Source: a plasmid
Assembly: GCF_056746865.1 (NCBI RefSeq)
Contig: NZ_JBWKMP010000005.1
DNA length: 64,000 nucleotides
Direction: 5' to 3' (one strand)
Shown here: positions 60,001 to 63,000 of the stretch, piece by piece
Position numbering within the stretch: position 1 is the first letter of the stretch
Layout: each line of letters starts with the position of its first letter
Made by a program: the position numbers

Positions 60001-63000
60001 TTTGAGGTTAACGGTGACTCAGGTACTGGTTGTGTTTTGCTATCCGCGCAGCCTGACAGTAATGCGGTGGCGGCAACCATCGATAAAATGATGGATTTCA
60101 TGGTGTTCCTCCATATTTCAGACAAAAGAAAACCCGCACGAGGCGGGTATGAATGAGCCATTAAAGGCGGAATTGCACTCTTTGTTTAGTTTTGATATCT
60201 ATCCTGTTGCATCATCAGAACAGAATACTGGAGTTAAGTTGGTTATGGCGCGGTTTTATTTAAATGTACCTTTTGAAGAAAAGGAGTTAGCCAAACAAAA
60301 AGGGGCGCAATGGGATCAAGAACAACGGAAATGGTTTGTTCCACAGGGGAAAAATCCAATTTATTTTATTCAGTGGGTAAAAGAATTAAACGAACATGAT
60401 TACAATATTTTTTCTCAACGTTTTTATATTGCGGAAAGTTACCAGTCATGTTGGCGCTGTAAGAAAATAACTCCTGTGTTTGGTGTTTTTTTGCCTCGTT
60501 GGTTTAGTTATAGAGATGTTGTTTGTGGGGTTAAACCTGCTGAATGGGAAGGTCGCATATTAGATAAATGGTATGAAACATCTTCTCCACGAGGTATGGT
60601 ATATTTTGATTCAAAGAAAAATATAATTTATCAGTGGTTAACCAATCCAAAAGCATGGGCTATTTTATCCAACGTAAGAAGGATATCATCTTCTGCGTTA
60701 TCAATAATCAATAAGCATTCTAAGTTATATTATCCCGCCTATAGTAAAACAGCGAAAATGACCTACTACGCGAATCATTGTTGTCATTGTAAATCAATGC
60801 AGGGAGACTTTATGATGTTTGATGAGCCAGGTGGTGTGTTTTATCCAGTCACATCTGAACAGGCGAAGAAAATAAAACTCCATGAAGTAATAAATGAAAC
60901 AATTTTTGCTAATGCAAACCACAGGCAAGCCATAGAGTAATGCTTGGTAGTGGAGGTTTTATAAATCTTTACGCAAGATAAAACCCGCACGAGGTGGGTT
61001 TTTATTATGGCATAAGTTTATTTATTGGAGCGTCCAAGCATTTGACTCATGATTTCTTTTCGTTTTAGATCATAGAGTGCTTCGTTGGCATTTTATGTAT
61101 TCCTTAATCAAGGCGCCTTCTCATTTCACTAACTTTCTTTTTATATTCACTATCTTGTTTTTGCTGAAGTGCAGCACGAGCATTATCGCAGTTTTGATCG
61201 GTTATTGTACCTTTCTTGCAATCTTCTAAAGTTTTAGTGGCTTCACTGATGTTGTTTGAGTAATATTCTACAGAATATATTTTTTCTTTACATCCCACTA
61301 ACATTAAACTGGCGAAGATAATTGATGAGGCGATAATTGCATTTCGTGACTTATTCATATCAGCTTAAATCTCTTCTCTTTTGGCGAACATATGTTTCAT
61401 ATTGAGCTTTCCGCTCATTCTCTAGTTGCCGTTCAGCAATATCATATTGCTTCAATTGTAGCTCCATTGTCAATTTTTCTGTATTCAATTGGTTAGATAA
61501 GTCAGCTTTTTTTTGCGGAGTATCTGCTGACGCGAACTCCTTCTGTAACGTGGTTAATCTCTTAGCCCTTTCCTGCATTTCATTGTTGAAATTTTCATAG
61601 AATTTGATCTTAGCCAGGATCGCATCATATTTTTGTTGCGTCTCTGCAACGTTGCTTGATAAGTCATATTGCGATCGCAAAGAGCTAAGATCTGATTTTG
61701 CACTATTTGTTATTGTTGATAGAGAATCCTTCATATAGCTGGATGCGCTATCAAAGCCATTGCTGAAATCAGTGAAGCCTTCGAGTCTTTTCTTCTGTTC
61801 TTCAGCGTATCTTATGGTCTGTTCATATTGTTGCTTGAGTTGCTCAAGCTGTCTTGCCGCTTCAGCAGCACGATTTAGCCCTTCTTCAACTGTTTTAGCT
61901 ATTGCTGCAACGTCTACTACTGGAATACCAGATGCAAAGATTGATGGTGATGTTATGGTAATTATTCCAGCAAAGAGAAATGATAATACTTTATCTTTCA
62001 TGTTAATCACCCCGCTTTAAGTTTACTTCCACGGTTTAATCCCTGAACTAATGCTGATGCAGAACGACTTCCTGCATTAAAGAATGGATTTGGCATTTTG
62101 CTGGCAAAACCATTAGTGAAAGATCGGAGTCCTGATGCTCGCATAAAACCGGATGCAACCTTACCTCCAAAGCCATTAGCGGCTGATGTAAGGCCATTTA
62201 TACCTACCCCGCCAGTAAGAGTTGAGCAGAGAGTACCTACTTGCTCAACAAGGAATATAGATATAACAGTCACCATAAAGAAATAAACTACTGTTGTGAG
62301 AGTTATATTTCCGCTTGATGGGACTGTTTGCTCTACAAAGCTGATGACGAAGCTGAACGATATACTATAAAAAAGATTTAGCAATATATAATTTAAACAG
62401 CTACCTACCCATGCGCTAAACATATTTCTTGTCGAAGCAAATAGAGAAAAACAGATAAATAATATTCCGGCGGATAAGAGAATGCCAACCATGAATGTTG
62501 ATAGAGTTAGAAATACAGTGGTGTAATAAATAAGCAGCAGCCCGCCAACATATCCAACCCCCCAAATTAGATATATGTATAGTTGATCTGTGAAGCTATA
62601 CCACTCCAGAGTATCTAACTCATTATTCTTAAAATCATTTAACGTTACTGAAAGCATATTCCACAAATTATCAACACTGGTTGCAGTTCCTGAACCTCCA
62701 GTAACAGCAGCAGAAAGGTCGGAGCCAGCGTGCATGACAAACGGAATCACAAACTCACTGTAATAAGGTGCTGAATAAGTGAATGCACCAACCAGGGCGA
62801 ATGCACCGATGTTTTTTGTGACCTCACTCATGATGACGTCACGCTGGGAATACGTGATTTCATATATTAGATAAATGACGTATAAGGCTATGGCGGCAAA
62901 GAATACAGGAGATATTGCCTGTGCAACCTTAGCGGCGTTCGTCGCCGCCGTTGATTCAACAGCGGTTGTTACTTTCTCAAGAAATAATGAAACAACATTC

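Follow-up and report, generated by a model that had tools for sequence, protein, structure and literature searches.

The ygiA gene of IncI2 plasmids is an accessory gene, mislabelled as a DNA primase, whose product joins DUF5710 to a predicted zinc domain

On a 64,000-nucleotide (nt) stretch of plasmid DNA (contig NZ_JBWKMP010000005.1 of NCBI RefSeq assembly GCF_056746865.1; hereafter the window, with positions counted from its first letter) the gene ygiA is a real, expressed-type accessory gene which lies outside the transfer machinery, and it encodes a member of a two-domain family in which a small DUF5710 module is followed by a C-terminal domain that is strongly suggested to hold zinc. The window comes from an IncI2 plasmid with mcr-1, the best matches to its 59.4-61.4 kb part being 99.9% identical over the whole of that part and typed IncI2 / MOBP / MPF_T, and it contains a type IA topoisomerase gene, a pil operon with a shufflon and a VirB-type type IV secretion system (T4SS). 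Databases already list the gene, though under a wrong label. Among the main vehicles of mcr-1 colistin resistance are IncI2 plasmids, and ygiA is one of their soft-core genes; the “DNA primase” label that many records systematically give it could lead astray models of how DNA synthesis is primed in a new host in these plasmids, which lack a primase. The present analysis corrects that label and brings together a two-domain family, widespread on conjugative elements, whose zinc domain is modelled with confidence and is without structural relatives; we rate the finding as of moderate weight, useful for setting the record right and for giving experiments a definite object, but no surprise on the level of a new system.

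The two-domain YgiA protein and its family

A preliminary description of the window, drawn from the sequence alone, had proposed an open reading frame (ORF) on the plus strand at 60149-60940, with the peptide FEEKELAKQKGAQWDQEQRKWFVPQG and the motifs CWRCKK and HCCHCK, and such an ORF, of 263 amino acids (aa), is present. An identical or near-identical coding sequence (CDS) is annotated in IncI2 plasmids as a “DUF5710 domain-containing protein” and in other records as a “DNA primase”. Its true start is probably ATG 60245 (M33), giving 231 aa, because the N-termini of relatives, the length of a database entry, a GGAG sequence and the pattern of substitution between alleles all point there. A start at the M33 position, of the form M-x-R-x-x-L-x-V-P-F, is seen in a 46%-identical relative and in about 100 more distant relatives, and the AlphaFold database entry for the other IncI2 allele has 237 aa, as expected for this start. 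The GGAG lies 11 nt upstream of ATG 60245, and ATG 60149 abuts a hairpin stem. Between two IncI2 alleles codons 1-32 have 0 synonymous and 2 non-synonymous changes, and across codons 33-250 the proportions of synonymous (pS) and non-synonymous (pN) change are 0.37 and 0.10.

The 96-nt leader ahead of this ATG is absent from the ygiA-less plasmid that was compared (L014), and between alleles it is better conserved than ygiA itself. It contains TATCCTGT (60200-60207, 52 nt after the second of the hairpins described below), which fits the IncP-type nick consensus YATCCTGY, a match that is probably due to chance as there are 14 such octamers in the window against 6.4 expected. A ratio of non-synonymous to synonymous substitution (dN/dS) of ~0.22 between the 100% and 84% IncI2 alleles indicates that ygiA is under purifying selection and encodes a functional protein. 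The gene had been called AT-rich, correctly (35.6% GC compared to 43.1% for the window, at the 7th percentile of 700-bp windows), but adjacent eexN has 33.7% GC and trbJ 38.2%, so composition alone is no sign of foreign origin. YgiA is of cytoplasmic type, its sequence having no signal peptide, membrane segment or lipobox.

The DUF5710-like motif that had been suspected was recovered by a profile search, in which Pfam PF18974 matched residues 35-77 of the 263-aa form (E=3e-16). YgiA covers positions 1-43 of the 44 in the model, DUF5710 is matched by 98/98 aligned relatives, and its predicted fold in an AlphaFold2 model is beta-alpha-beta-beta. Beyond DUF5710 no Pfam family matched YgiA, nor did any NCBIfam family, PADLOC returned 0 families at E<=1 and the PHROGs match was confined to the DUF5710 stretch. 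Longer proteins from the same search carry 1-8 copies of the module, often in tandem arrays, and its partners in them are ArdcN with MPTase-PolyVal, Toprim primase domains, and a MobA/VirD2 relaxase with TraI_middle and LPD7; one metagenomic protein has two copies together with repeats judged SAP-like by eye, and Rep_3-DUF5710 initiators occur on Acinetobacter plasmids (PMC11233732). As all fusion partners act on DNA, mostly single-stranded DNA (ssDNA), we infer that DUF5710 may be a module for targeting DNA or a DNA-bound protein hub. If it were a DNA- or replisome-targeting tag, its repeated presence in TraC, ArdC-like, relaxase and Rep proteins would be accounted for; DNA binding by YgiA itself might be supposed by analogy with the enzymes fused to DUF5710. 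On one metagenomic contig (L021, 164-1921) a fusion of DUF5710, an OB fold and the exonuclease VII (ExoVII) large subunit is encoded directly upstream of a YgiA-family gene, and a TraW-like protein is also encoded there.

The C-terminal half had been described as Cys-rich; its motifs are present, but just four cysteines (C69, C72, C179 and C182 in 231-aa numbering) are conserved among 98 sequences, and these and two Trp are the only invariant residues in that alignment. The family shares the stretch Y..DYSKT....Y.MNHC..C.AKQGDF.L..EPGG.F.P. The AlphaFold2 model from the 98-sequence alignment, which superseded one made with only 5 sequences (predicted local distance difference test score, pLDDT, of 39), reached a pLDDT of 92.8 and a predicted template modelling score (pTM) of 0.87, with a local pLDDT of ~97 at the CxxC sites. 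It consists of the small DUF5710 domain and then a domain rich in beta strands, with each CxxC motif at the turn of a beta-hairpin. Two CxxC knuckles, each at such a turn, are the mark of a zinc ribbon, and zinc binding, which the preliminary description had raised, is thus strongly suggested by the invariant cysteines and the confident model. Like the zinc ribbons of the Zn_Ribbon_1 family, of DnaG-type primases and of type IA topoisomerases, YgiA would presumably hold one zinc between its two knuckles; unlike in these ribbons, the knuckles are 75-110 residues apart and enclose a structured beta/alpha insertion of ~100 residues.

One family member matches Zn_Ribbon_1 (E=7e-4), and no profile match to the zinc domain of YgiA was obtained for zf-CHC2 or topoisomerase ribbons. 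Neither a Pfam family nor a structural neighbour in the PDB was found for the C-terminal domain. PDB sequence matches to APC7 and TPPP (E=0.011) were dismissed as chance-level, the TPPP region being helical where strand is predicted in YgiA. A word-indexed search with a profile of the C-terminal domain found no protein pairing it with a different N-terminus, and among the proteins reached it occurs solely with DUF5710 or as fragments; its hidden Markov model (HMM) had no match in IncP TraC1 or elsewhere in the window. Some relatives have C-terminal extensions, in which no known domain was found. On the strength of the model, the C-terminal domain is an undescribed fold family, predicted to be stapled by zinc.

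Among 1.84 billion cluster representatives an exhaustive HMMER search gave 2341 matches at E<=1e-3 and 644 at E<=1e-10, totals which take in proteins matching by DUF5710 alone. The best 150 matches are mostly 190-260 aa long and aligned across both halves, and the C-terminal domain is present in 147 of the 165 proteins fetched. Proteins with both domains are widespread in several phyla, on conjugative plasmids or elements like them. One relative adjoins a VirD4/TraG coupling protein and a DUF6710 protein, another adjoins a TraG-type protein and a third is three genes from ArdC and TopB. On a Salmonella plasmid the relative follows traY and a toxin-antitoxin pair, on an IncF plasmid it follows traI-traX-finO-hha, on a rearranged IncF plasmid it is near an antirestriction gene and on a Serratia plasmid it is near a large helicase and RecX; further relatives are on Clostridium perfringens and Acinetobacter plasmids. 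A tblastn search of phage genomes found no phage copy of YgiA. On two IncF plasmids (L023, 8605-9654; L005, 4616-5654) a hypothetical ORF of ~115 aa on the same strand precedes the YgiA relative and is possibly a lineage-specific partner gene.

Identity as a DNA primase was rejected on domain content. YgiA had no Toprim or AEP match in Pfam even at E<=10, no NCBIfam match and no structural similarity to any primase, whereas TraC1 of IncP-1 (RP4-type) plasmids shows Toprim_3. TraC1, like YgiA, is plasmid-encoded and linked to conjugation, and it contains two DUF5710 copies (residues 528-570 and 600-643) that are ~50% identical to YgiA residues 3-47, but it is a protein of 1061 aa with ArdcN, MPTase and catalytic Toprim domains, all three of which YgiA lacks. 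The label is therefore an annotation artefact, passed from TraC via the shared 44-residue module. The TraC1 copies come after the ArdC-like part and before Toprim (852-928), and in DnaG the corresponding position is occupied by the zinc-binding template-recognition domain. DUF5710 is also fused in several relatives to the domains of ArdC-type anti-restriction and polyvalent proteins (ArdcN with MPTase-PolyVal), but Pfam detected neither the ArdcN ssDNA-binding domain nor a zincin-like metallopeptidase in YgiA.

The junction between eexN and yggB

By blastn, ygiA was found in 345 PLSDB plasmids, all typed conjugative (109 with the window allele and 236 with an allele ~84% identical), compared to an IncI2 count of ~517, taken as the PLSDB records with TrbJ at >=80% identity. 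An intact second eexN gene (eexN2) is present in 158 plasmids, and in pMRY15-117_2, the sole eexN2 plasmid examined, it fills the ygiA slot; the two figures, compared as totals only, come to 503 of ~517. EexN2 shares with YgiA the same hairpin-bounded slot between eexN and yggB, but it is an unrelated small lipoprotein encoded on the operon strand, whereas YgiA is cytoplasmic-type and encoded on the opposite strand. Homology between pMRY15-117_2 and the window extends up to 60147 at hairpin copy 2 (break 60147/60148) and is found again from 61094, and a remnant of eexN2 persists on the other side of ygiA (Table 1). No ygiA follows eexN in an IncX4-type T4SS relative. Horizontal insertion, which the preliminary description had put forward, is thus supported by the patchy presence of the gene, by eexN2 in its slot, by the breakpoint at a hairpin and by the eexN2 remnant, and from sequence comparison we conclude that ygiA is an accessory cassette that recombination exchanges at junctions containing hairpins. 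The cassette has a jagged right boundary, which argues against clean transposition. The eexN-yggB junction is a swap site bounded by hairpins, in which either ygiA or a second exclusion gene is found.

Three copies of the hairpin, AAACCCGCACGAGGYGGGT, are present in the window (58805, 60130 and 60981) compared to 0.02 expected by chance, and copies 2 and 3 bracket ygiA as had been noted. On the minus strand copies 1 and 2 resemble intrinsic terminators or attenuators between cistrons, with a run of T after the stem-loop of copy 2. Copy 3 carries a C-to-T change and has a folding energy of -13.1 kcal/mol on the plus strand, where UUUUUAUU follows, and a weakened -9.3 kcal/mol on the minus strand, so that it reads as a bidirectional terminator that would now mainly serve ygiA. 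Copies 1 and 2 belong to a direct repeat of 79 nt (58745-58823 and 60070-60148, 99% identical), which besides the hairpin has a ribosome-binding site and the initial ~19 signal-peptide codons (MKSIILSMVAA...) of both kikA/trbM and yggB, giving these two genes common 5' ends and upstream signals. The hairpin was not found beside relatives of ygiA in other plasmid types. A RelE/ParE-type toxin-antitoxin pair lies between yggB and kikA at 58844-59366; some IncI2 plasmids have it and others (L015, L016) do not, making this stretch a second variable module with hairpin copies 1 and 2 as bounds.

In the IncI2 plasmid TP114, where the gene bears the name ygiA, the gene order is traA(virB6), trbJ(virB5), TP114-005, ygiA (“DNA primase”, soft-core), yggB, kikA(trbM), pilL (PMC7508951, Supplementary Data 1), and it is the same in the window; the window gene was equated with TP114 ygiA by this synteny (trbJ, TP114-005, ygiA, yggB, kikA) and by the shared “DNA primase” label. 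High-density transposon mutagenesis scored ygiA (TP114-006) as “-” for maintenance, for in vitro conjugation and for in situ (mouse gut) conjugation (PMC7508951). E. coli Nissle was both donor and recipient in that screen (PMC7508951), which puts host-range and anti-defence roles outside its reach.

That ygiA sits inside the T4SS/pil block could mean that its product belongs to the core of the IncI2 VirB-type T4SS, as a structural or an assembly component, an idea already contradicted and to which we give hardly any credence. The gene is on the strand opposite to the rest of the block and is not required for TP114 transfer, it was detected in 345 of ~517 plasmids and so undetected in about a third of IncI2 plasmids, eexN2 takes its place in pMRY15-117_2, the related IncX4-type locus is without it, and its product has neither signal peptide nor membrane segment. 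Assignment to the conserved T4SS core, which would have refuted the preliminary reading, is thus not borne out, TP114 ygiA being both non-essential and “soft-core”.

The same dispensability in TP114, the failure of blastn to detect ygiA in that third of IncI2 plasmids and the “DNA primase” label in many records could also be what a decaying TraC-like primase remnant, or a selfish passenger without function for the plasmid, would leave behind. In IncI2 plasmid pSH146_65 (NC_019115.1; L013, 4972-5762) ygiA is annotated as two CDS (414 nt and 345 nt), pointing to a frameshift or stop and to occasional loss of function, which would also suit a remnant or passenger. We think this very improbable, given the dN/dS of ~0.22, a compact two-domain architecture whose invariant Cys are kept in hundreds of clusters across phyla, and a C-terminal domain unlike any part of IncP TraC1.

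Possible roles of YgiA

We infer zinc binding, targeting to DNA or the replisome and an effector role for YgiA, and give about an even chance to the combined reading, namely that it is an accessory zinc-ribbon protein which DUF5710 targets to DNA or the replisome and in which the zinc domain is the effector. DUF5710 would bring YgiA to DNA, the replisome or an ssDNA-bound hub; the zinc domain, which has a conserved polar patch (N-H-C..C...QGD, EPGG) beside the predicted metal site, would bind either a partner protein or nucleic acid; and YgiA would act during plasmid DNA processing or establishment and not in the secretion machine. Several observations weigh against this. A scan recognised no sigma-70 consensus promoter upstream of ygiA, a search of the literature on DUF5710, PF18974 and ygiA found no functional study, the neighbourhoods of relatives are heterogeneous with no constant partner gene, and the split in at least one IncI2 plasmid indicates that ygiA can be lost without obvious cost. 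The isoelectric point (pI) of IncI2 YgiA is 9.2 compared to a median of 5.4 for the C-terminal domain in the family, and such unconserved charge is a poor fit to a simple DNA-binding surface shared by the C-terminal domains. Both a DNA mimic and a uniformly basic DNA binder were rejected because charge is not conserved.

An extended form of the targeted-effector reading seems to us unlikely but of consequence. Here the zinc-stapled C-terminal fold would have as its target either incoming ssDNA or a host protein of replication, repair or defence, DUF5710 would be a general address tag to ssDNA or to a replisome hub such as SSB, and YgiA would represent a new establishment or anti-defence class; if true, this class of factor on mcr-1 plasmids would have been overlooked since standard screens use isogenic donor and recipient.

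The main rival is likewise an anti-defence or establishment role, in which YgiA, working early in the new host either alone or after delivery by the T4SS, neutralises restriction or other defence or shields ssDNA, with a benefit that depends on the recipient; on balance we doubt it. DUF5710 is common to ArdC-type and TraC-type polyvalent proteins, which have been described as delivered with DNA (PMC5512222), but no known anti-restriction family matched YgiA and the C-termini are variable, with no conserved tail resembling a secretion signal. Relatives are found near ArdC/TopB and, on an IncF plasmid, near an antirestriction gene, and many family members have acidic loops after the first knuckle; against this, the IncF relatives are tra-distal (finO-hha side) and so enter last. 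The silence of the TP114 screen fits such a role, as Nissle on both sides would hide it.

The position of ygiA speaks in both directions. In IncI1 R64 nikAB enter last; should nikAB enter last here too, the transferred strand would be the window minus strand, and ygiA would be the one gene of the 36-kb T4SS/pil block for which that strand could serve as template, which is suggestive only. A sequence search found no IncP-type nick consensus near nikA. Unlike leading-region early genes, however, ygiA is outside the leading region, at least 20 kb from oriT (the origin of transfer) and nikA (~18.4 kb), and no Frpo-like single-strand promoter was recognised, the minus-strand DNA upstream of ygiA folding no better than shuffles (z=0.03).

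Rather improbable, in our estimate, is that YgiA regulates the transfer/exclusion locus, whether as a zinc-ribbon DNA binder or through convergent transcription that tunes trbJ-eexN read-through into yggB-kikA-pil. The arrangement would allow it, ygiA and the eexN operon being convergent, with nothing between them but the bidirectional terminator and its weakened minus-strand version, and both the second exclusion gene in the slot of pMRY15-117_2 and the well-conserved leader would suit a regulatory locus. Insertions in TP114 ygiA, however, leave transfer unaffected in vitro and in situ even though downstream kikA and pil are needed in situ, relatives in other plasmid types have unrelated contexts, and YgiA has no helix-turn-helix or other known regulator domain.

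Other features of the plasmid

The region around ygiA is common, 517 plasmid records matching 59.4-61.4 kb of the window (megablast), nearly all conjugative and chiefly from Escherichia, Salmonella and Shigella. The features discussed are listed in Table 1.

Table 1. Location of ygiA, of its parts and of associated features in the window
Feature	Position	Strand	Remarks
mcr-1	24449-26074		NCBIfam MCR-1, 1302.7 bits vs cut-off 1100
Hairpin copy 1	58805-58823	.	Upstream of kikA/trbM; within 79-nt direct repeat
yggB (lipoprotein)	59466-60101	-	Divergent from ygiA; first codons and ribosome-binding site within 79-nt repeat
Hairpin copy 2	60130-60148	.	Just upstream of yggB ribosome-binding site; left bound of ygiA cassette
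ygiA cassette leader	60149-60244	+	Probably 5' untranslated region and promoter region
ygiA	60245-60940	+	231 aa plus stop; PGAP annotates longer 263-aa form from 60149
DUF5710 domain	60251-60379	+	Residues 3-45 of 231-aa protein; PF18974 E=2.5e-16 to 3.1e-16, 59.3 bits
C-terminal zinc-ribbon-like domain (predicted)	60407-60931	+	Residues ~55-229; large beta insertion
First CxxC knuckle, C69-W-R-C72	60449-60460	+	Turn between predicted strands E60-68 and E75-83
Second CxxC knuckle, C179-C-H-C182	60779-60790	+	Within N-H-C-x-x-C-x-x-x-Q-G-D-F...E-P-G-G-x-F-x-P
Hairpin copy 3, GGTGGG variant	60981-60999	.	Between convergent ygiA and eexN; right bound of cassette
eexN2 remnant, 61 nt	61032-61092	-	85% identical to intact pMRY15-117_2 gene; downstream of ygiA, beside hairpin copy 3
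eexN (entry-exclusion lipoprotein)	61104-61358	-	NCBIfam NF033894, E=2.5e-17, 62.6 bits vs cut-off 33; convergent with ygiA

The preliminary description held that every other gene from 27.9 to 63.8 kb is on the minus strand. This is so for annotated-gene ORFs of >=100 aa, but not for the invertible shufflon at 35.0-36.7 kb. Likewise, in an annotated plasmid nearly identical to the window, the stretch that begins with the topoisomerase gene and closes with the left end of the T4SS block has all its CDS on the other strand except for ygiA and one shufflon CDS of 156 nt on the plus strand. The shufflon (35039-36697) has multiple inverted GTGCCAATCCGGT recombination sites downstream of pilV, its plus-strand ORFs being invertible pilV segments, and is adjoined by a tyrosine recombinase gene at 33853-35067. 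An Rfam scan of 57-64 kb returned nothing.

A run of TTGTGTGGG-like iterons at 18210-18345, upstream of nikA, presumably marks the oriT region. Directly after nikA is an ORF of 1437 aa (18845-23158), which had no NCBIfam match and whose position makes it the expected NikB relaxase, with an extension of polyvalent type; the CDS of the near-identical plasmid is shorter (1268 aa) and labelled “LPD7 domain-containing protein”. The window also has three copies of a gene for a 402-aa IS200/IS605-family TnpB RNA-guided endonuclease (NCBIfam E=3e-115), at 2301-3509 (minus strand), 6345-7553 (plus) and 11059-12267 (plus), two of them in direct orientation with identical flanks and one inverted with 94% identity.

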